A DNA stretch of 32,239 nt from Mycobacteriales bacterium (lineage in GTDB: Bacteria; Actinomycetota; Actinomycetes; JALYNC01), in contig JBPCOX010000260.1 in NCBI GenBank assembly GCA_050999825.1, positions 1 to 32,239 on the forward strand, read 5' to 3'. Below, piece by piece: positions 1 to 31,877 of this stretch (position 1 is its first letter; each line of letters begins with the position of its first letter). Made by a program: the position numbers and the translations under genes. Under the pieces are notes generated by a model. The model searched no databases. It had not been told where the DNA came from and saw nothing but the letters and a program-made list of their open reading frames with translations.

Positions 1-33
1 AAGCGGATCGCCCGGGTCTGCCGCCGCCAACGC

Positions 34-882
34 GTGGCCATGCCCTACGGCCAGAAGGCGGTCCTGCCCAAGGCGTTCCTGGTCGGGATCAGCGCGGAGG
101 AGTACGCCGTCGTCGAGCCGTTGCTCGACACGGTCCAGGAGGCGGTCTCGGCCAGCCTGTTGCGCACCGCCCGGGAGAAGCAGTGGCTGCACTCGGGCCC
201 ACCGCGGGTCGTCGTACAGGACAGCGAGACCGTGGCCGAGGGCCGCCCCGAAGTCATCTCGACGACGCTGCCCGGACCGGGGGCCCTGTCCGGCGGTGGT
301 GCCGACGCGCCGCGCGAGTCCACGACCACGTACTCCCCCGGCGACGCCGTCGCTCCCGGTTCGGAGCCGACCCACACGGTCTCGGCCTCCGCCAAGCCCG
401 AGACACCGGCCCTGATACGTCCCGAGACGCGGCCCGAATCGACCCATGCGATCCGGGACACCCCGCCGGCCGCACCGGCCAGACCCGTGCTCGTGCCGGT
501 CACCCGTGACCTGCGGGCCGAACCCACGGCGGCCGAGCTGCACGGCGCCGGGGTGCACCGGTTGCGCGGCACGGACGGAGAACCGGACATCGTGCTCACC
601 CGAGAGGCGTTGGTCGTCGGCCGGGCCGAGGACTGCGACGTGACGATCGGCTACCCGTCGGCCTCGCGGCACCACCTGCGGCTGGTTCCGACGTTGGCCG
701 GCTGCCGGGTGGAGGACCTGGACAGCCGGCACGGCACCCGGGTGAACGGCGCGCTGGTCCGCCAGCCGGTGTTGCTGCGGGCGCGCGACACGCTGCAGCT
801 GGGCAGTATGGGACCGTGCTGGACCTACCAGCCGCTCGTGTCTACTCCTGTTATGCGCGGAAGCGGCCAGGCGGGCACGTGA
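34..882 (+). CDS. FHA-domain protein (C-terminal FHA, Pro/Thr/Ala-rich N-terminal half)
   Basis: The C-terminus has FHA hallmarks: VVGRAEDCDVTI..SASRHHLRL..DLDSRHGTRVNG. The stop TGA at 880-882 overlaps the GTG start of the next gene. The start could be GTG 34 or ATG 40. Confidence 0.72.
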   Translation: MAMPYGQKAVLPKAFLVGISAEEYAVVEPLLDTVQEAVSASLLRTAREKQWLHSGPPRVVVQDSETVAEGRPEVISTTLPGPGALSGGGADAPRESTTTYSPGDAVAPGSEPTHTVSASAKPETPALIRPETRPESTHAIRDTPPAAPARPVLVPVTRDLRAEPTAAELHGAGVHRLRGTDGEPDIVLTREALVVGRAEDCDVTIGYPSASRHHLRLVPTLAGCRVEDLDSRHGTRVNGALVRQPVLLRARDTLQLGSMGPCWTYQPLVSTPVMRGSGQAGT

Positions 883-1604
883 CGGCGGTGACGGTGCACT
901 GGCAGGTCGGTGCCCACACCGAACGCGGGGCCCGCCGCGGCACCAACATGGACGCGCTGCTCGTCGCGCCGCACTCCGGTCTGGTCGTGCTCGCCGACGG
1001 GATGGGCTCCACGAAGCGCGGCGGGGAGGCCGCGGCGATGGCCGTGGCCGTCTTCGCCGAACGCCTCGGGGTCCAGGATCGGGACGAGGACGGGGTCAAC
1101 GCCGCGGTGGCCGCCGTCCAGGACCAGCTGGTCGCCGAGTTCGCCGCCGGCGGGCTGCTGACCGGGGCCACCACGTTGTGTGCCTTGGTCGCCGCCGGTG
1201 ACGGTTTGCTCGTCGTCAACGTCGGCGACTCCCGCGCCCACCTGCTGCACGACGGCGTACTGCAGGTTCTCACCACCGATCACACGGTCGCCGCCCATCT
1301 GGTCGCGGTCGGCGCCGCGGAGCCTGATTCGCCCCTGGTCCGGCGTACGACGAACCATCTGCGCCGGTACCTCGGCAACCCGGCCGGAGCCAGCGCGGAC
1401 ATCACGCGGCTCCGGCCGGTGCCGGGTGACACGGTCCTGTTGTCGACCGACGGCGTACACGGCGCGCTGAACACCGCGCAGATGGCCGACATCCTGGCCG
1501 GTTCGCGCGATCCCGAACTCGGCGCCCGCCGGCTCGTGGTCGCGGCCGCGGCGGCCGGCGGCACCGACGACGCAAGCGCCGTCGTGGTCCGCCCCCAGCG
1601 ATGA
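879..1604 (+). CDS. PP2C-family Ser/Thr protein phosphatase
   Basis: PP2C/PPM motifs are present: LADGMGS, VNVGDSRAHL, LLSTDGVH and a C-terminal DDASAVVV. I chose GTG 879 because it is in frame with ORF 816..1604 and forms a GTGA overlap with the upstream stop. The longer ORF start at 816 looks like an extension. Confidence 0.85.
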   Translation: MTAVTVHWQVGAHTERGARRGTNMDALLVAPHSGLVVLADGMGSTKRGGEAAAMAVAVFAERLGVQDRDEDGVNAAVAAVQDQLVAEFAAGGLLTGATTLCALVAAGDGLLVVNVGDSRAHLLHDGVLQVLTTDHTVAAHLVAVGAAEPDSPLVRRTTNHLRRYLGNPAGASADITRLRPVPGDTVLLSTDGVHGALNTAQMADILAGSRDPELGARRLVVAAAAAGGTDDASAVVVRPQR

Positions 1605-2422
1605 GCGAGCGCGGCATGAGCCGGGTCGTCGTCCGCGCCCCCGACGGCCAGCAGCACACGCTGTCGCCGGGGCAGTCGCTGATCTTCGGCCGGCCCGGTG
1701 GCGGGGCGGACCTGTTGCTGGCCGGCGACGTCCACCTCTCGCGCCACCACGGCCTGATCGAGGCCCAGCCCGCCGGCTGGCAGCTGACCAACATCTCCGA
1801 GGTCAACCCGCTGTACGTCGACACCCTGGAGGGTTCACTGATCCCGCTGCGCCCCGGTGCGCGCTGGGTCGCCGACCGGGCGGCGGTCACCGTCGGGACG
1901 GCGACCATGGTGCACCAGGAGCGCGCGATCGCCATCAGCTGTACGGCGCTGGCGGCCGAGCCGGCCCCCCTCGATCGTGAACTGCCGGCCCTGACCGGCG
2001 AACCGACCCGGCCCGGCGCCGGTGTGGCACTGGCCGAGGACGCGCAGTACTTCCTGACCGCGGTGTTGCTGTGCCAGCCGTGGCTGCGCGACCAGCTGCG
2101 GCTGCGCCGGTTACCGTCCGCGGCCGAGATCGGCGGGGAGGTCGCGGCGCTGACCGGCGTACCGGCCGGAGCCGCCACCATGGACGAACTCGAGCGGTAC
2201 GTCGTCACCGACCTCAAGACCCTCAAGCAGAAGCTGCTGGACGCCCGGGTGTTCACCGAGCGTCCGGTCAGCCTCGGCATGGTCGCCGCGGCGCTGATCG
2301 GCCACGGGATGGTCACCCCGGCTCACCTGGCGCAGCTGCCGGGCCAGGCCCGCGAGTGGCGTTACCGTTGGGGGGCCCGGTTGACGACGAACAGCGGCGC
2401 CGGCGGGAGGGCTGGACGGTGA
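1601..2422 (+). CDS. FHA-domain protein with uncharacterised C-terminal domain
   Basis: The N-terminus is FHA-like: LIFGRPGGGADLLL..HLSRHHGLI..NISEVNPLYV. ATG 1601 overlaps the PP2C stop as ATGA. An alternative in-frame ATG lies at 1616. Confidence 0.72.
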   Translation: MSERGMSRVVVRAPDGQQHTLSPGQSLIFGRPGGGADLLLAGDVHLSRHHGLIEAQPAGWQLTNISEVNPLYVDTLEGSLIPLRPGARWVADRAAVTVGTATMVHQERAIAISCTALAAEPAPLDRELPALTGEPTRPGAGVALAEDAQYFLTAVLLCQPWLRDQLRLRRLPSAAEIGGEVAALTGVPAGAATMDELERYVVTDLKTLKQKLLDARVFTERPVSLGMVAAALIGHGMVTPAHLAQLPGQAREWRYRWGARLTTNSGAGGRAGR

Positions 2423-4464
2423 ACACCGAGCGGACCTACCTCGGGTACGCCGCTGCGCCGGCAGCCACCGGAACCCAGGTCACCGGTACCCATGGACTGG
2501 GCCAAGCCCAGGCCACCGAAGTCTTCGGGTCCTACACCATGCCCGAGCACTCCCCCGCCGGGTTCGCCCTGGACGTCGGCGCCAGCCTGTCGATCTGGAC
2601 GATAACCGCCTGGGTGAACGCCGGCGTGAACGCGCACGTCTACCGGGCCAGCGACCCCGACGCCCTGCACGGTCGCGACGTCGCGCTCAAGGTGCTGCTG
2701 CCGCAGTCCGCCCACGGCCGCCAGGACCAGGTAGTGCACGAGGTGGCGGCGATGAGCTCGCTGACCCTCGGCCATCCGCACCTGATGTCCTCGACCATCG
2801 CCCGCCGGATCAACTCCGGGCCCTACACCGGCGGCGTGCTCATCGTCATGCCGTGGGCGTCGCTGAACCTGCGCGAGTACGTGCTGGCCATCCGCCGCGG
2901 CGACGAGCTGCCCGACGAGGGTCGCTGGGCGCGGACCACCTCGATGTGCGAGGCGCTGGCCGGCATCGCCGACGGGCTGGCCCACCTGCACGAGCTGCAG
3001 ACCTCGCACGGCGACGTCAAGCCCGACAACATCATGCTCGTCGACGGGGTGTGGAAACTCGGCGACTTCGGGCTGACCCGGCCGATGGAGGGCTCCTACG
3101 TCCTGTCCGCGCCGGGCACTTTGAGCTACACCGCACCGGAGGAGGCTCGCGCCCAGCACGCCGACCCGGCCGCGGAGATCAAACGGCGACCGGCCGGGGA
3201 CGTGTGGGCCCTAGGGGTCACCCTGCACTTCGCGGTCACTGGCGGCCGGTTTCCGATGCCCGGCATCACGCCCGACGAGCGGCTGGCCGCGGTCCGGCAA
3301 GGCGTCATCCAGATCTCGCCGGAGGTCCAGCTGCCGGAGCTGCGGCACCTGCTCGGCGAGCAACTGCTCGTCGACGACATGCACCGAGGGGCGCAGTCAT
3401 ACGAGCGGCGGACCTCGGCGTCGATGGCCGGTGAGGTGCTGCGCCGGATCGCGGCCACCGAGCACCTGCCGACCCGGCGGATCCGGGTCGAACCGGTCGT
3501 CGACTCCGACGCGATGCTGCGCTACCGCGGCCAGTGCGAGCGGGTCGCGGCGCAGACCGTCGAGCAGTGGCGCGACCTCGGGCCCTGGGACTCCGACCGC
3601 GCGGCGACGACCCAGCGCTCACGCGGCGTCCTGGGCACGATGCTCACCAACCGCCTGTCCGGCCTGGAGCCACCCCCGGAGTTGCGGCTGCGCAAGAGCG
3701 TGCTGGCCCGGACGTTCGGTCTGCGGGCGCCGTACGAGAGGTGCCGCGTCGCGGCCCGGGAGAACGCGGTAGTGCGGTACGCACCGCCGATCGAGGACAG
3801 CTCCCGGGTGGCCCGGCGGCTGCTCGCGGTCAGCACCTTCCTGGTGCTGCTGACCGCCCTGACCACCGCGGGGACGCCGCCGGCCGCTCGGACGATCCTG
3901 GCCGCGGGGTTGATGGCCGGGGTGGTCGCGTTGTTCGCCGCCGTCGCGATCGGCGGCCGGTTCCCGGAGCCCGCCTACGTCTTCGGTTCACGGTCCGGGC
4001 CGCTGGTCGGCGCGCTCACCGGGGCCGTCCTCGGGCTGTCCGCGCTCGTACCGCTGACCCGCATCGTGGCGGGGTCGGGCGCGGCCGCCGGGTCGGCCGA
4101 CGCCTCCGGCGTACGCGCGCTGCACGACGTGCTGCTCGTCCTTCCTTCGGGTGCGGCGGTGGCCCTGCTCGGCTGGTACGGCGCCGGAGTGCTGACCACC
4201 CGGCACGCCATCGCCACCCAGCGGCGGGCCGCGAACCCGGTACGTGGGGACGTTCCCCACCCCAGCGGGCGACCGGCGCCGGCCCCTCAGGTGCAACACC
4301 GGCCGGTCCAGCCGAACTGGTCCCCACCGCGGGTCACGGAGCCGCTGCGGATGCCACCGACCGCGGTCCCGGTGCCGTCGCCGGTACGGGCACCGGTGGC
4401 CCAACCTGATCCCGAACCCGTCTCCCGGCGCCGGTCGTCGCGCCGGCGTACCCGTGGCGGGTGA
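2419..4464 (+). CDS. Hanks-type Ser/Thr protein kinase with multi-pass C-terminal membrane region
   Basis: Kinase motifs are present: VALKVL (catalytic Lys), SHGDVKPDNIML (catalytic loop, HGD rather than HRD), LGDFGL and SYTAPEE. The C-terminal third has about four hydrophobic helices (LLAVSTFLVLLTALTT, ILAAGLMAGVVALFAAVAIGG, LVGALTGAVLGLSALVPL, LLVLPSGAAVALLGWYGAGVL). GTG 2419 forms a GTGA overlap with the upstream stop and follows a GGGAGGG Shine-Dalgarno at 2405-2411. The 2071 ORF start is an out-of-gene extension. Confidence 0.85.
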   Translation: MNTERTYLGYAAAPAATGTQVTGTHGLGQAQATEVFGSYTMPEHSPAGFALDVGASLSIWTITAWVNAGVNAHVYRASDPDALHGRDVALKVLLPQSAHGRQDQVVHEVAAMSSLTLGHPHLMSSTIARRINSGPYTGGVLIVMPWASLNLREYVLAIRRGDELPDEGRWARTTSMCEALAGIADGLAHLHELQTSHGDVKPDNIMLVDGVWKLGDFGLTRPMEGSYVLSAPGTLSYTAPEEARAQHADPAAEIKRRPAGDVWALGVTLHFAVTGGRFPMPGITPDERLAAVRQGVIQISPEVQLPELRHLLGEQLLVDDMHRGAQSYERRTSASMAGEVLRRIAATEHLPTRRIRVEPVVDSDAMLRYRGQCERVAAQTVEQWRDLGPWDSDRAATTQRSRGVLGTMLTNRLSGLEPPPELRLRKSVLARTFGLRAPYERCRVAARENAVVRYAPPIEDSSRVARRLLAVSTFLVLLTALTTAGTPPAARTILAAGLMAGVVALFAAVAIGGRFPEPAYVFGSRSGPLVGALTGAVLGLSALVPLTRIVAGSGAAAGSADASGVRALHDVLLVLPSGAAVALLGWYGAGVLTTRHAIATQRRAANPVRGDVPHPSGRPAPAPQVQHRPVQPNWSPPRVTEPLRMPPTAVPVPSPVRAPVAQPDPEPVSRRRSSRRRTRGG

Positions 4465-4567
4465 CCTCCGCCACCCCGGTCCGGTCGCGTTTGCCGCGCA
4501 GGTCGCCCCGGCGGTCGACCGGGTCGCCATCGGCGTCCACGTCGCGTCCCGTTCCGAGGCAGCGCAG

Positions 4568-5194
4568 GTGCTGCGTCGCTTCGGGCTGCCCAGTGCCGTC
4601 CCCCTGATCGAGCTGCGGCTGGGCCTGCCGCTGCGGCCGATCCCCCTCGTCCAGGCTCGAGCCGTCTTGCGCTACGTCGCCGAGGCCGATTTCCAGGCCC
4701 ACCTGCTCGGCCAGGTCGCGGCCGGCATTCTCACCGTGCGGGACGAACACATCGCGCTCACCGGCCGCGGGCAAGAGTGCTGCACGGCGCTGGCGGAGGT
4801 CCACGAGCGCACCGCCGACGTCCTCTGGCGTGGTCGGGCACAGAGCCTGCCCCGGCTGGGCGCGCTGGCCGGCCGGTTGTTGACCGCGGCGCAGGCCGAT
4901 GCCGGTCCGGCGTTCCGGGGCAGCGCTCCGTCGTACGAGCCGGTCGGTGCGTCACCCGGCCTGCTGCTGTTCGGCCAGTTGTGTGCGCTGCGCCTGCACC
5001 GGGCCGATGCGCACGCCGCCGCCTGGGCCGAGGCCGGCCTGTCTGCGGAGCAGATCCAAGCGCTGCCGGCCGGCGCGCAGCGCGGCCGGATCGAGGTGCG
5101 GACGAATGAACTGGCGGCGCCCCCGTACGCGAGCCTGTCCGAGACCGAGCGGCGGGCCTTCCTGGCCGGGCTGGTCGCGCTCGGCTCCGCCTGA
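4568..5194 (+). CDS. hypothetical protein, possible winged-helix (MarR-like) fold
   Basis: This is the in-frame tail of ORF 4244..5194. GTG 4568 is the first canonical start after the kinase stop, and GTG 4454 is an alternative. The segment GILTVRDEHIALTGRGQE resembles a MarR wing. No catalytic motif was recognised. Confidence 0.4.
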   Translation: MLRRFGLPSAVPLIELRLGLPLRPIPLVQARAVLRYVAEADFQAHLLGQVAAGILTVRDEHIALTGRGQECCTALAEVHERTADVLWRGRAQSLPRLGALAGRLLTAAQADAGPAFRGSAPSYEPVGASPGLLLFGQLCALRLHRADAHAAAWAEAGLSAEQIQALPAGAQRGRIEVRTNELAAPPYASLSETERRAFLAGLVALGSA

Positions 5195-14873: not shown

Positions 14874-15917
14874 GTGAGTCGCGCACGGTGTGAGGTGGTC
14901 CCCGGTCCCGGCAGCGTGGCGCGGCGACGCGACAGCCTGTTGTGGGCCTCGGAGTCGATCCCGGAATCGGTGTGGGACACCCTCGTCGCCTGCCTCGGAC
15001 TGGGTGCGCGGGCCGGCGCCAGCGCCGCGGTCTTGCAGGGCCTGGCCGAGACGATGCTGCCGGGCCTGGATCACGGCAGCGCGTTCGCCATCGTGGTCAG
15101 CGACGGCACGGCCGGCTTCGTCCTGCGGCACGGTGGGGCCGAGGTGCTGGTCGATGGCGAACCGATCCCGGGCGGCCCTCTGACGCCGCTGGGCGCCGGA
15201 ACCTCCCTGCTCGTCGGCGAGCCGACCGCGGTGCGGGCCGCGGCCGAGCAGGCACCGGCGTACCGGCACGACCTCGACGGCGGCGCCGTGCCCGGGGCGG
15301 CATTGCGCTGGACCCCCGCGGCGCGTGCCGAGGCGCTGGCCTCGGCCGTTCCCGCGCCGCCGCCCGCGGAATCCGCGCCCGTCGTCGCGCAACCCGGACC
15401 GGAGTTGCCGTCGGCCGGCCTGTTGCCGTCGGCCGGCCTGTTGCCGTCGGCCGCCCCGTCGCCGTCGGCCGCCCCGTCGCCGACGCCCGAATTCGCGGCC
15501 GAGGCGACCTCCGACCCGGAGCGCACCGAGTTCCACCCGCCGCCGGATCCCGAGTCCCCGACGACCAGCGGGTTCCGGCCGAACGCCGGAGTGCTGGTGT
15601 TCGAGGACGGCGCGACCATCTCCCTGCACGGTGACGTCGTCCTCGGCCGGCGACCGGACGCCCACGAATTGGTGGTCAACGGCCAGGCCGAGCCGGTGGT
15701 CATCAACGACCCCGATCACGTGCTGTCCGGGGCCCACGCCGCCATCCGCTGTCACGGCGACGACGTGGTCGTCGTCGACCTGGATTCGCTGAACGGCACC
15801 CACGTCGCCGCGCCCGAGGCCCGGGAATGGACCCGCCTCAACCCCGGTGCGCCGTTCCGGATGGAGGACGGCTTCCGGATGCTGCTGGGCTGGACGGTGC
15901 TGACCTACCGGCGCTAG
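14874..15917 (+). CDS. FHA-domain protein (C-terminal FHA, repeat-containing Pro/Ser/Ala linker)
   Basis: The C-terminal FHA reads VVLGRRPD..VLSGAHAAI..DLDSLNGTHV. GTG 14874 lies 1 nt after the glgX stop (14870-14872) and follows an AGGGAGG Shine-Dalgarno at 14863-14869. Confidence 0.75.
   Translation: MSRARCEVVPGPGSVARRRDSLLWASESIPESVWDTLVACLGLGARAGASAAVLQGLAETMLPGLDHGSAFAIVVSDGTAGFVLRHGGAEVLVDGEPIPGGPLTPLGAGTSLLVGEPTAVRAAAEQAPAYRHDLDGGAVPGAALRWTPAARAEALASAVPAPPPAESAPVVAQPGPELPSAGLLPSAGLLPSAAPSPSAAPSPTPEFAAEATSDPERTEFHPPPDPESPTTSGFRPNAGVLVFEDGATISLHGDVVLGRRPDAHELVVNGQAEPVVINDPDHVLSGAHAAIRCHGDDVVVVDLDSLNGTHVAAPEAREWTRLNPGAPFRMEDGFRMLLGWTVLTYRR
15404..15485 (+). repeat. in-frame 18-bp tandem repeat, about 4.5 units, inside the FHA gene
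   Basis: The units are gttgccgtcggccggcct x2 (identical, 15404-15439), then gttgccgtcggccgcccc, gtcgccgtcggccgcccc and a partial unit. Together they encode LPSAGLLPSAGLLPSAAPSPSAAPSPTP. Confidence 0.85.
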
Positions 15918-20423: not shown

Positions 20424-20482
20424 AGAGGACGAGTGGCGGGCCGGTTCGAGGCCCGAGCCGGTGCTCGGTAGCGTTGCTCGCG

Positions 20483-22518
20483 ATGACAGGACGCCTGGGA
20501 ATCACCGACATCTCCCCCGCAATTTCCTGCGGGATGTACTCCGCTCGCGCCGTCGTCGGCGAGCGGGTGCCGATCGCGGCCACCGTGTTCCGCGAGGGGC
20601 ACGACAAGGTCGGCTGCAACGTGGTCTGGACACCGCCGCGGGAGGGCGCCGCGCGCCGGGAACGCCCGCCGTTCCTGCCGATGACGCCCGGTACGCCGGG
20701 GCTGGACCAGTGGCACGCCACCGTGGTGCCCGATCGCCCGGGCCCCTGGACGTTCGTCATCGAGGCCTGGAGCGACGAGCTGGGCACCTGGCGCTACGTC
20801 ATCGGCAAGAAGACCGAGGTCGGGCAGAGCGCCCAGGAACTGGCCAACGACCTGGAGCACGGCGCCCGGCTGCTGGAGCGCGCGTCGCGGCTGGTGGCCA
20901 AGGAGTGGAAGCCGCGGGTGCTGGACGCCGCGGCCACCCTGCGCGATGAGACCCGGGAGCTGCAGCACCGGCTGTCCCCCGCCTTCGAGCCCGAACTGCA
21001 CGAGATGCTGCTGCGGCACCCCGTGCGCGAGCTGCTGACCAAGTCCCGCCGCTACGACATCTGGGTCGACCGCCCGCGGGCGCTATACGGCAGCTGGTAC
21101 GAGTTGTTCCCCCGGTCCGAGGGCGGCTGGAACGACGACGGCAGCCCGCGGCACGGGACCTTCCGCGACGCGGCCAAGCGGCTGCCGGCCATCCAGGACA
21201 TGGCCTTCGACGTGGTCTATCTGCCGCCGATCCACCCCATCGGCGAGGTGAACCGCAAGGGCAAGAACAACACCCTGGTCACCACGCCGGACGACGTCGG
21301 CTCGCCCTGGGCGATCGGCAGCAAGGACGGCGGGCACGACGCGATCCACCCGGAGCTGGGGACGATCGAGGATTTCGACGACTTCGTCGAGCAGACCCGC
21401 GCGCTGGGCATGGAAGTCGCCATGGACTTTGCTCTGCAGGTCGCGCCGGACCATCCGTGGGTGACGAGCCACCCCGAGTGGTTCACCACGCTGCCCGACG
21501 GGACGATCGCCTACGCCGAGAACCCGCCGAAGAAGTACCAGGACATCTACCCGATCAACTTCGACAACGCAGCGCCGGCGAAGCCGGGCGACCAGCCGGG
21601 CGACCTATCGGGGCTGTCCGCCGAAGCCCTCCGCGTGCTCACCCACTGGTGCGAGCACGGCGTGCGCATCTTCCGGGTCGACAATCCGCACACCAAGCCG
21701 CTGGACTTCTGGCACTGGCTGATCTGGCAGGTCAAGCGGGACTTCCCGGACGCGCTGTTCCTCGCCGAGGCGTTCACCCGGCCGGCGATGATGCACACCC
21801 TGGCCAAGATCGGGTTCACCCAGTCCTACACCTACTTCACCTGGCGCACCCAGCGGTGGGATCTGGAGCAGTACGGCCGAGAGCTGGTGGACTCCGCGGA
21901 CTACATGCGGCCCAACTTCTTCGTCAACACACCGGACATCCTGCACGCGAGCCTGCAGTACGGCGGCCCGCCGATGTTCAAGATCCGCGCCGTGCTGGCC
22001 AGCACGATGTCACCGACGTGGGGCGTCTACTCCGGTTACGAGCTGTTCGAGCATGTCGCGGTGCGGCCGGGCAGCGAGGAGTACCTGGACTCCGAGAAAT
22101 ACCAGCTGCGCCCGCGCGACTGGGAGGCCGCCGGCCGCGAGCACCGCACGCTGGCGCCCTACCTCACCCGGCTGAACTGGGTACGCCGCGAGCACCCGGC
22201 CCTGCAGCAGCTGCGCAACCTGCACTTTCACCACGCGGACAACGACAACATCATCGTCTTCTCCAAGCGGGCCGAGCGGGAGGACGGCACGGAGGGCACC
22301 GACGACGTGGTCCTGGTCGTCTGCTCGCTGGACAGCCACACCACGCAGGTGTCCTCGCTGGCCCTGGACATGCCCGCGCTCGGGCTGGACTGGCACGACC
22401 GGTTCGCCGTCGAGGACCAGATCACCGGCGCGACCTACCACTGGGGCCAGTCCCCGTACGTCGAGCTGAACCCCTACCTCGAGCCGGCGCACCTGCTCGT
22501 CGTACGGCGGTACGGGCC

Positions 22519-22522
<4 letters not shown>
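20483..22522 (+). CDS. glgE: alpha-1,4-glucan:maltose-1-phosphate maltosyltransferase GlgE
   Basis: The N-terminus is [29 protein letters not shown]. Family blocks are present: [19 protein letters not shown] and [30 protein letters not shown]. Confidence 0.92.
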
Positions 22523-30182: not shown

Positions 30183-31877
30183 CTAGAAGCGGGCCGGTTC
30201 GGTGTAGGCGCCCCACTCCTCGCGCAGCGCCTCACAGATCTCGCCGAGAGTGGCCTCGGCCCGGCAGGCCTCGAGCATGGCGGGAACCATGTTCTCGTCG
30301 GTGCGCGCTACGTCGACCATCCGGCGTACGGCCGCCCGGGCGGCGTCGTCGTCACGGGCGGTGCGGCGGGCACCGAGCGCGCGGTTCTGTTCGATCTCGA
30401 CCTCGTGGCTGACCCGCAGGATCTCCAGCGGGTCCTCCACCGACCGGGTGAGAACGTTGACGCCGACGACCTTCTTCTCGCTCTTCTCCAGCTGCCGCTG
30501 GTAGACGAAGGCGGCCTCGGCGATCTCGGACATGAACCAGCCGTCCTCGATGCCCCGAAGCAGCCCCGACGTCATCGTTCCGTCGGTTCCCATCTCGCGG
30601 ATGTGGGTGAAGATCTCCTCGGCCTGCCGCTCCAGCTCGTCGGTCAGCGCCTCGACGTACCACGATCCGCCGAGCGGGTCGGCGACGTTCACCACACCGG
30701 TCTCCTCGGCGATCACCTGCTGGGTCCGCAGCGCGATCTGCGCCGCCCGCGCCGACGGCAGCGCGAGGACCTCGTCCAGCGCGTTCGTGTGCAGCGAGTT
30801 CGTCCCGCCCAGTACAGCGGCCAGCGCCTCGATCGCCGTACGCACGATGTTGTTGTCCGGCTGCTGCGCGGTCAGCGACACGCCGGCGGTCTGCGTGTGG
30901 AAGCGCAGTTGCTGCGCCTTTGCCGTCTTCGCTCCGTAGACGTCGCGCATCCAACGCGCCCAGATCCGCCGCGCCGCGCGGAACTTCGCGATCTCCTCGA
31001 AGAAGTCGATGTGCGCGTCGAAGAAGAACGACAGGCCAGGCGCGAACTGCTCGATGTCCATCCCGCGGGACAGCCCGAGTTCGACGTACCCGAATCCGTC
31101 GGCCAGCGTGAAGGCGAGCTCCTGCGCGGCCGTCGACCCGGCCTCCCGGATGTGATAGCCGGAGACGGACAGCGGCTTGTACGCCGGAACCTCGCGGGCG
31201 CAGAACTCCATCAGGTCACCGATCAGGCGCAGATGTGGCTCGGGCGCGAACAGCCACTCCTTCTGCGCGATGTACTCCTTGAAGATGTCGGTCTGCAGCG
31301 TGCCGTTGAGCACCCCGATGTCGGTGCCCTGGCGCTCGGCCGCGACCAGGTACATGCAGAACACCGGTACCGCGGGACCGCTGATCGTCATCGACGTCGT
31401 GGTCTGGGCCAGCGGGATGTCCGCGAAGAGGATGTCCATGTCCGCCGCGGAGTCGATCGCGACACCGCAATGGCCCACCTCGCCGAGCGAGCGCTCCTCG
31501 TCGCTGTCGCGGCCCATCAGAGTCGGCATGTCGAAGGCGACCGACAGCCCGCCGCCGCCCTCAGCCAGGATCATCTTGTAACGCTCGTTCGTCTGCTCGG
31601 CGTTGCCGAAGCCGGCGAACTGCCGGATCGTCCAGGTCCGGCCGCGGTAGCCGGTGGGGTGCAGACCCCGGGTGAACGGGTACTCCCCCGGCCACCCGAT
31701 CCGGTCGAACCCCTCGACCGACTCGGGATCGCGCGGTCCGTAGACCGGATCCACCTCGACCCCGGAGAGCGTGGTGAAGTCGGCGTCACGCACAATGGCG
31801 GCGTCGAAGCGCTCCTGCCAGCGTCGGCGCCCGTCGACGATCTCAGATACATCCATGGCGTCGATAGTAAAGGCCAC
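30183..31877 (-). CDS. acyl-CoA mutase large (substrate-binding) subunit, methylmalonyl/isobutyryl-CoA mutase family, without a fused B12-binding domain
   Basis: Family blocks are present: YPFTRGLHPTGYRGRTWTIRQFAGFGNAEQTNERYK, GLSVAFDMPTLMG, ISGYHIREAG-type block (SVSGYHIREAGSTAAQE). The start is GTG 31877 or ATG 31856. Confidence 0.88.
   Translation of the reverse strand: MAFTIDAMDVSEIVDGRRRWQERFDAAIVRDADFTTLSGVEVDPVYGPRDPESVEGFDRIGWPGEYPFTRGLHPTGYRGRTWTIRQFAGFGNAEQTNERYKMILAEGGGGLSVAFDMPTLMGRDSDEERSLGEVGHCGVAIDSAADMDILFADIPLAQTTTSMTISGPAVPVFCMYLVAAERQGTDIGVLNGTLQTDIFKEYIAQKEWLFAPEPHLRLIGDLMEFCAREVPAYKPLSVSGYHIREAGSTAAQELAFTLADGFGYVELGLSRGMDIEQFAPGLSFFFDAHIDFFEEIAKFRAARRIWARWMRDVYGAKTAKAQQLRFHTQTAGVSLTAQQPDNNIVRTAIEALAAVLGGTNSLHTNALDEVLALPSARAAQIALRTQQVIAEETGVVNVADPLGGSWYVEALTDELERQAEEIFTHIREMGTDGTMTSGLLRGIEDGWFMSEIAEAAFVYQRQLEKSEKKVVGVNVLTRSVEDPLEILRVSHEVEIEQNRALGARRTARDDDAARAAVRRMVDVARTDENMVPAMLEACRAEATLGEICEALREEWGAYTEPARF

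Follow-up and report, generated by a model that had tools for sequence, protein, structure and literature searches.

A four-gene FHA, PP2C and Ser/Thr kinase cassette of uncultured actinobacteria and its candidate FHA2-Cdom/non-RD kinase core

The stretch of DNA considered here, referred to as the window, comprises 32,239 nucleotides (nt) of an actinobacterial contig (JBPCOX010000260.1; C174 positions 1-32239), and begins at a contig end of a metagenome-assembled genome (MAG) of 1.9 Mb that is 61% complete. Its left end is occupied by a cassette of four consecutive genes on the forward strand. Gene 1 (1..882) is truncated at its 5′ end and encodes an FhaA-like scaffold protein with Pfam FhaA_N and FHA domains, in a frame that is open from base 1. 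Gene 2 (879..1604) encodes a soluble PP2C/PPM Ser/Thr phosphatase of 241 amino acids (aa), gene 3 (1601..2422) a 273-aa protein that we name FHA2-Cdom and that was recognised from an AlphaFold (AF2) model with Foldseek matches to FHA domains, and gene 4 (2419..4464) a membrane Hanks-type Ser/Thr kinase of 681 aa. This FHA, PP2C, FHA and Ser/Thr kinase content had been read from the sequence alone in a first-pass annotation, and is borne out by domain searches and by the fold of gene 3. Operons combining kinase, PP2C and FHA genes are a known theme, of which the cassette is a variant. What is new are the FHA2-Cdom family with its helical domain, the association of this family with non-RD kinases, and a putative membrane-anchored and remodelled paralogue of FhaA.

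The four proteins of the cassette

Gene 3 is laid out as a divergent FHA domain (~nt 1619-1948), a disordered linker and an all-helical C-terminal domain (C-domain; ~nt 2018-2398). The FHA domain escapes sequence models: Pfam FHA gave no match, Yop-YscD_cpl reached 20.7 bits against a cut-off of 33.2, and a PDB-sequence profile search with the gene-3 alignment returned marginal FHA matches only (E>=0.22). It was recognised by its fold. The N-terminal domain of the AF2 model (pLDDT 78.5) matches 36 PDB FHA chains at E<1e-3 in Foldseek, for example those of APLF, OdhI and the Rv0020c FHA (E 1.5e-5 to 1e-4, probability 1.0), with Rv1747 also among the 36. Residues G30, R31, S47, R48, H50, N64, S66 and N69 (GR, SRxH and N..S..N) are invariant across 22 homologues. 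The model thus indicates that gene 3 carries a genuine FHA fold with phospho-threonine-binding residues.

The C-domain consists of six helices over ~125 aa (aa ~140-266) and, when modelled alone, reaches a pLDDT of 86 and a pTM of 0.80. It has no match in Pfam even at E<5, none in NCBIfam, and no fold match in the PDB (best E 2.2) or among viral structures; in a fold search with the whole gene-3 model, FHA domains were the sole matches. An unrecognised C-terminal domain in the second FHA protein had been noticed from the sequence. Profile searches of Pfam and NCBIfam, structure prediction of the non-FHA part and fold searches all uphold this view of a confidently modelled domain that belongs to no described family. 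Close homologues of gene 3 form 22 clusters at 90% identity, are 55-91% identical to it, and all stem from ‘Geodermatophilaceae bacterium’ MAGs or soil metagenomes. No homologue was found among 72,556 plasmids or 50,697 phage records.

Two start codons can be considered for gene 3, an ATG at 1601, which overlaps the gene-2 stop as ATGA, and an in-frame ATG at 1616. The orthologues begin with MNRVVV, which aligns with the ATG at 1616; the position of the overlap is nonetheless conserved in all relatives. Directly after the overlapping ATG, the window carries a 15-nt insertion, AGCGAGCGCGGCATG (1601-1618), which creates the second in-frame ATG and adds five residues. These residues are not seen in most of 21 aligned homologues, three of which have other, longer N-terminal extensions.

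Gene 4 matches Pfam Pkinase with 75.6 bits (cut-off 31.7), and its kinase domain spans ~nt 2623-3312. The motifs VALK, HGDVKPDN, GDFG and TAPE can be read from the translation, the second of which makes it a non-RD kinase; the other kinases of the same assembly are all HRD (four of four). The PknB_PASTA model matches the kinase domain only, with 61.6 bits against a cut-off of 450. The kinase domain is followed by a conserved middle region, then by four transmembrane (TM) helices with short loops (aa 468-589, ~nt 3808-4185, hydropathy scan) and a Pro-rich tail, and the protein so predicted would be without an extracytoplasmic sensor domain. The tail of ~70 aa (window 4216-4461, aa ~600-681) is common only to the closest relative, L026. 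It is missing from two aligned relatives (L003 and L004), and in most other relatives the kinase matches end before it. When aligned to the same two relatives, the N-terminus shows a 16-aa insertion at window 2437-2493.

Gene 1 had been given a start at position 34 in the first-pass annotation. This start does not hold, since the frame is open from base 1, the window begins at the contig end and the orthologues are longer. The Pfam FhaA_N alignment begins at profile position 47 for the protein started at 34, or at position 32 for the open frame. Full-length orthologues have ~52 extra N-terminal residues, MSPWVFVLVIVATGLLVARRW..., leading into KRIARVCRRQRV, where the window opens; orthologues from related contigs open with MSPWVFVLVIVATGLLVARRWLPDR...TKRIARVCRRQRV, the final part of which is the exact beginning of the window. 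Because the orthologues are longer and the window starts at a contig end, gene 1 is 5′-truncated, with ~52 codons missing, including those for an N-terminal membrane helix. In the relatives, the full-length protein comprises 298-332 aa, with an N-terminal hydrophobic helix at residues 1-19 (hydropathy scan).

The FhaA_N match of gene 1 scores 27.6-34.3 bits (Pfam cut-off 25) and covers profile positions 29/32-113 only (nt 4-252). The C-terminal FHA domain (~nt 613-804) matches Pfam FHA with 56 bits. Between the two lies a linker rich in Pro, Thr and Ser (~nt 256-525), which, with 16 P, 12 T and 8 S within 90 aa, confirms by its composition the Pro/Thr-rich region that had been pointed out in the first FHA protein. 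From these features, gene 1 in the relatives would be a membrane-anchored paralogue of FhaA that has been remodelled at its N-terminus. Clustered at 90% identity, the family falls into 24 groups whose members all come from MAGs or soil metagenomes, a distribution as narrow as that of the gene-3 family.

Gene 2 matches Pfam PP2C_2 with 61 bits (cut-off 24), and the Stp1/IreP model over its full length with 129.6 bits, which is under the equivalog cut-off of 230. Its metal-binding motifs NMD, DGMGS, GDSR, TDG and TDDAS can all be read from the translation and are intact. At 241 aa, the protein is a catalytic domain alone: its single hydrophobic stretch falls inside the PP2C fold in a hydropathy scan, and neither a TM segment nor an extracellular domain of the PstP type is present. 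Identity to the catalytic domain of the canonical PstP of a related MAG, a protein of 480 aa, is 30.5%.

Conservation of the block and its overlapping junctions

The cassette was compared between ten loci: the window, L003, L004, L026-L029, L108 (a 390-kb contig), G403:C93 and G416:C28. In all ten, which come from uncultured ‘Geodermatophilaceae’ MAGs or soil metagenomes, the four genes have the same order and strand. The upstream flank is usually a divergent gene for a hexapeptide O-acetyltransferase, and in L108 a gene for a thiamine pyrophosphate (TPP) enzyme. Downstream follow a PepSY and an SCO6745-like gene, or a molybdopterin oxidoreductase gene, or, in the window, an SCO6745-like gene directly. 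Because the order is kept while the flanks vary, the four-gene block is a constant unit. The co-occurrence of the four genes, on which the proposal of a dedicated module had been made to depend, therefore holds in 10/10 loci with differing flanks. The remark that the cassette contains no gene for an enzymatic output is likewise supported across the loci examined.

The three junctions are GTGA at 879-882 (cacGTGAcgg), where the GTG start of gene 2 overlaps the stop of gene 1, ATGA at 1601-1604 (gcgATGAgcg) and GTGA at 2419-2422 (acgGTGAaca). The sequences of these 4-nt overlaps between same-strand genes are as first annotated. Across seven loci with gene-3 proteins of 78-92% identity, every one of the 21 junctions keeps an NTGA overlap. 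At several of these loci, the open frame of the downstream gene begins merely 6-15 nt ahead of the overlapping start, so that no alternative start is possible there. A GGGAGGG run resembling a Shine-Dalgarno sequence lies 7-13 nt upstream of the GTG of gene 4.

A single NTGA junction is ordinary, as ~19% of close same-strand pairs of open reading frames (ORFs) in the assembly offer one, by crude ORF calls. A crude scan of the assembly for runs of such junctions counted 69 runs of one, ten of two and none of three; this comparison is weak, as the scan also missed the cassette itself, probably since the PP2C frame fails a similar filter on third-position G+C content (GC3). The real evidence for translational coupling is the conservation of the overlaps, and not the count of junctions in the assembly. 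Together with the lack of any other possible start in several loci, this conservation supports the earlier description of a translationally coupled unit. The 4-nt overlaps would couple the translation of all four genes, and the cassette is supported as a dedicated unit of one writer, one eraser and two readers.

A comparison with the canonical actinobacterial fhaA-fhaB-pstP-rodA-pbpA-pknA-pknB cluster (Rv0020c-Rv0014c in Mycobacterium tuberculosis; PMC11898655) reveals similarities and differences. In both, an FhaA_N domain is followed by a long disordered Pro/Thr linker and a C-terminal FHA domain, a PP2C gene comes after an FHA gene, a membrane Hanks kinase stands last, and packing is tight. 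In contrast to the canonical operon, the cassette has no rodA or pbpA, no PASTA domains, and a single kinase instead of two, which is non-RD. Its PP2C lacks the TM and extracellular part of PstP, FhaA_N is partial (positions 29-113) with a membrane helix ahead of it, and the second FHA protein consists of an FHA domain and the new C-domain, and is not FhaB/FipA. No FTSW_RODA_SPOVE or transpeptidase gene was found in the cassette in any locus.

Four related MAGs each carry two FhaA_N genes, a canonical one at 132-137 bits (positions 1-115) and that of the cassette at 33-36 bits (29-113). Of the canonical contigs, two were read; they encode FhaA, FhaB and PstP (L038), and FhaA, the 480-aa PstP and RodA (L039). 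Since related genomes thus also carry a canonical FhaA elsewhere, the cassette is a paralogous second system, and its separation from the division cluster, as first proposed, stands. In the window's own incomplete assembly, the cassette copy was the sole FhaA_N gene detected. The FHA domain of gene 1 is 35-39% identical to those of canonical FhaA and FhaB. On the evidence of such comparisons, the cassette genes and their canonical counterparts appear to be old paralogues and not recent duplicates.

Pairing with non-RD kinases and a proposed working

Relatives of gene 3 occur well beyond these MAGs. A gene-3 profile run against 1.84 billion representative proteins yielded three clusters below 1e-30 and ~20 more at 1e-10 to 1e-22. 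The latter are mostly 260-300 aa in length and align from end to end, and therefore share the architecture of FHA plus C-domain. Weak profile matches were also obtained in 20 of 400 sampled genomes of the class, and eight of these distant actinomycete loci were read, with ORF calls based on GC3. A Ser/Thr kinase gene adjoins the gene-3 homologue in seven of the eight; in five Streptomyces-like loci it lies directly downstream, and in all three Streptomyces-like loci with both ORF ends readable the two reading frames overlap. The neighbouring kinases are non-RD in seven of seven cases (HGD in six, HAD in one), and comparison kinases, namely the best-scoring Pfam kinase matches in two of the same Streptomyces genomes, are HRD in 30 of 30. 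No FhaA-like or PP2C gene was found nearby in any of the eight loci.

The family is also found in gene fusions. The C-domain is fused to the C-terminus of a Ser/Thr kinase (P0061) and, in another protein, to MgtE_N (P0105). A PP2C domain precedes the FHA2 module in P0086, and an XRE-type helix-turn-helix (HTH) precedes FHA2-Cdom in P0029 and the FHA2 part only in P0099. As judged from gene content and order, the pair of gene 3 and gene 4 would be the evolutionary core of the cassette, with a distribution that reaches far outside this lineage; to this ancient two-gene unit, the genes for the FhaA-like protein and the PP2C would have been added in this lineage only. In one Streptomyces-like genome (G176), the paired non-RD kinase (L021 6342-7877) bears a weak C-terminal match to SLT (lytic transglycosylase; E 3.8e-4), a hint that the pair family includes at least one member with a cell-wall link.

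We favour, with moderate confidence, the view that the cassette is a second Ser/Thr phospho-signalling operon built on the pair of a non-RD kinase and FHA2-Cdom, and vertically inherited in a small clade of uncultured Geodermatophilaceae-like actinobacteria. In such an operon, the kinase would be held in the membrane by its four helices, with both ends in the cytoplasm, and would phosphorylate itself, the Pro/Thr-rich linker of gene 1 and possibly further proteins at threonine residues. Both FHA domains would dock on the resulting phospho-threonines, that of gene 3 on one carried by the kinase or by a substrate. Because it is non-RD, the kinase is probably independent of activation-loop phosphorylation and needs another form of control. 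FHA2-Cdom is the obvious candidate for this regulator, since it is encoded beside non-RD kinases and is fused once to a kinase; its C-domain may hold it at the kinase or close by, where it would serve as a regulator or substrate adaptor. A membrane or envelope target could be recruited by the FhaA_N domain of gene 1, and the PP2C would reset the system. FhaA is known to scaffold envelope-synthesis proteins in mycobacteria (PMC11898655). The output of the cassette is probably scaffolding at the membrane, rather than catalysis or transcription.

Several observations speak against this interpretation. The Gly-loop of the kinase is degenerate (NAGVNAHV), hence catalytic activity is not assured, and the FHA domain of gene 1 has His at a loop position that is usually Asn (SRHGT versus STNGT). 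The HRD baseline is small, and its 30 best-scoring Pfam matches favour canonical kinases. The C-domain fusion in P0061 joins an HRD kinase and not a non-RD kinase, and the role of the C-domain in kinase docking is inferred only from gene adjacency and this one fusion.

Comparable arrangements have been described in other bacteria. In the DRA0331-DRA0334 operon of Deinococcus radiodurans (vWA, Ser/Thr protein kinase (STPK), FHA and KI-FHA::PP2C), FHA docking switches the push/pull phosphorylation of the kinases (bioRxiv 10.64898/2026.01.23.701218). This operon shares with the cassette a self-contained set of kinase, FHA reader and PP2C, and the fusion of FHA and PP2C found there also exists in the gene-3 family (P0086). 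Biochemically, it sets a precedent for the push-pull switching of kinases through docking by FHA proteins and an FHA-PP2C. By its description, which is the basis of this comparison, the operon differs from the cassette in that it belongs to another phylum, encodes soluble kinases and a vWA protein where the cassette has its FhaA-like scaffold, and lacks the C-domain. The PpkA kinase, PppA PP2C and Fha1 of the H1 type VI secretion system (H1-T6SS) of Pseudomonas aeruginosa form another triad of writer, eraser and reader; its FHA protein serves as substrate as well as scaffold, and it leads to the assembly of a membrane machine instead of an enzymatic reaction. The cassette kinase differs in having no periplasmic vWA sensor domain. 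The connection to secretion that had been suggested for modules of this kind finds no support in the cassette: no secretion genes were found near it in any locus, and the T6SS FHA model TIGR03354, with a cut-off of 120, gave 17.2 bits.

A small non-catalytic protein encoded next to a Ser/Thr kinase is also known from Streptomyces, where KbpA is a kinase-binding inhibitor of AfsK (PMC6988585). The likeness to FHA2-Cdom lies in this position beside the kinase; binding and regulation of the kinase are features of KbpA, and AfsK, unlike the cassette kinase, is an RD kinase with PQQ repeats. A hidden Markov model of gene 3 found no match (E>1) among six-frame ORFs within 1.5 kb of afsK in G176, a locus found with NF053615 and in which KbpA was not identified by name.

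More tentatively, FHA2-Cdom and the non-RD membrane kinase could represent an ancient actinomycete signalling pair that has not been described before and would be the Ser/Thr equivalent of a two-component system. Its C-domain would serve, in kinases that work without activation-loop phosphorylation, as a dedicated module for docking or regulation; through FHA scaffolds, the four-gene switch of the window might then control the membrane or envelope, or alpha-glucan metabolism. The usual view of bacterial Ser/Thr kinases is that they are promiscuous and have no dedicated partners. In the present case, distant actinomycetes share a genetic tie between a reader protein that has a new domain and an unusual, non-RD subclass of kinases. 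The presence of the pair in cultivable and tractable Streptomyces-like genomes offers a testable handle on the regulation of non-RD kinases, and a new protein domain family is defined for structural and interaction studies. The four-gene version suggests that the pair can recruit a copy of the FhaA scaffold and a phosphatase to become a complete switch. Until a target is found, the cassette itself has limited practical importance.

Other explanations have to be weighed against a phospho-signalling operon with a scaffolding output. One of them, which we consider improbable, takes gene 3 for a phospho-dependent transcription factor whose helical C-domain binds DNA, so that the cassette would have a transcriptional output of its own. 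The C-domain is indeed a compact helical bundle, with a pattern (‘EIA..L ... V.EHLK.LR.KL’) that resembles the HTH helices of LuxR/GerE, the XRE-type HTH in front of P0029 and P0099 links the family to transcription, and regulators that combine FHA and HTH are known, EspM among them (description of NCBIfam NF052403). However, the C-domain has no match to any HTH family at E<5 or to a DNA-binding fold in the PDB, and where DNA binding is present in the gene-3 family it comes from the separate XRE domain. A LuxR/GerE identity of the C-domain was rejected, with an hhalign probability of 2.3% over 18 columns between the alignment of 51 C-domain sequences and one of 30 GerE domains from three genomes; the GerE Pfam model had no match at the gene-3 loci in three genomes.

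The cassette could also be the phospho-control unit of the neighbouring alpha-glucan (GlgE-pathway) cluster, acting through a third FHA protein that is coupled to glgX 10 kb downstream. Its gene (window 14874-15917) directly follows glgX, is 52-71% identical across contigs, and its product may be an additional reader or a kinase target. Four contigs have enough downstream sequence (the window, G401:C363, G403:C93 and L108), and in each of them 2-8 kb separate the cassette from the same ABC-GlgX-FHA(-GlgP-GlgE) block. In M. tuberculosis, GlgE is reported to be under the control of Ser/Thr phosphorylation, which adds to the appeal of this explanation. We nevertheless regard it as unlikely, since variable, unrelated genes (amine oxidase, TetR, glycosyltransferases, molybdopterin oxidoreductase) lie between the cassette and the glg block, loci of the L003/G416 type have other genes behind the cassette, and distant FHA2-kinase pairs are not near glg genes. 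Moreover, common descent would by itself lead one to expect such synteny in close relatives. The proximity fits vertical inheritance, and on this sequence evidence a functional link to the glg block is possible.

Least probable by far is an anti-phage or conflict system built on the kinase, in the manner of MADS Mad6, PD-T4-6 or Stk2, although the first-pass annotation had mentioned phage defence. The kinase domain does match the PADLOC models mad6 (82 bits) and PD-T4-6 and the NCBIfam MAD6 model (48 bits), and the PP2C matches PDC-M21C; these matches, however, span the generic kinase or PP2C domain only, and 48 bits compares with a MAD6 cut-off of 460. No methylase, nuclease or other defence partner gene was found at the loci examined, gene 3 has no plasmid or phage homologue, and the position of the cassette among housekeeping genes is conserved; a role in defence or in a mobile element thus finds no support.

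Neighbouring genes and source assembly

Gene 5 (4454..5194, forward strand), a variable neighbour of the cassette, encodes an SCO6745/HTH_67-like protein of 246 aa with weak matches to HTH_67 (26.4 bits, cut-off 27) and to the SCO6745 family model (33 bits, cut-off 120). Its likely GTG start at 4454 overlaps the kinase stop by 11 nt. An SCO6745-like gene lies downstream of the kinase in L003, L004, L026 and G416. Unlike in the window, a PepSY gene (107 aa) sits between the two in other relatives. Gene 5 was considered as a fifth member of the cassette and rejected: L108 and G403 lack it, and in L003 and L004 other genes stand between it and the cassette.

The remainder of the window outside the cassette consists of housekeeping genes. 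They encode a TetR regulator, an amine oxidase, a pair of glycosyltransferases and an ABC ATPase, followed by GlgX with the coupled third FHA gene, GlgP, GlgE, TreS, Mak, GlgB and methylmalonyl-CoA mutase.

Searches of the window's own GTDB family and order gave no match to the cassette, which was present in six of 151 Geodermatophilaceae genomes searched, all of them small MAGs. The contig's GlgE (20474-22522) and methylmalonyl-CoA mutase (30183-31877) are 78-92% identical to those of the ‘Geodermatophilaceae’ MAGs G401, G403 and G416, and just 62-81% identical to those of G003, a genome that nominally shares the genus of the assembly. The contig may have been assigned to the wrong bin, or the bin itself may be chimeric or misplaced.

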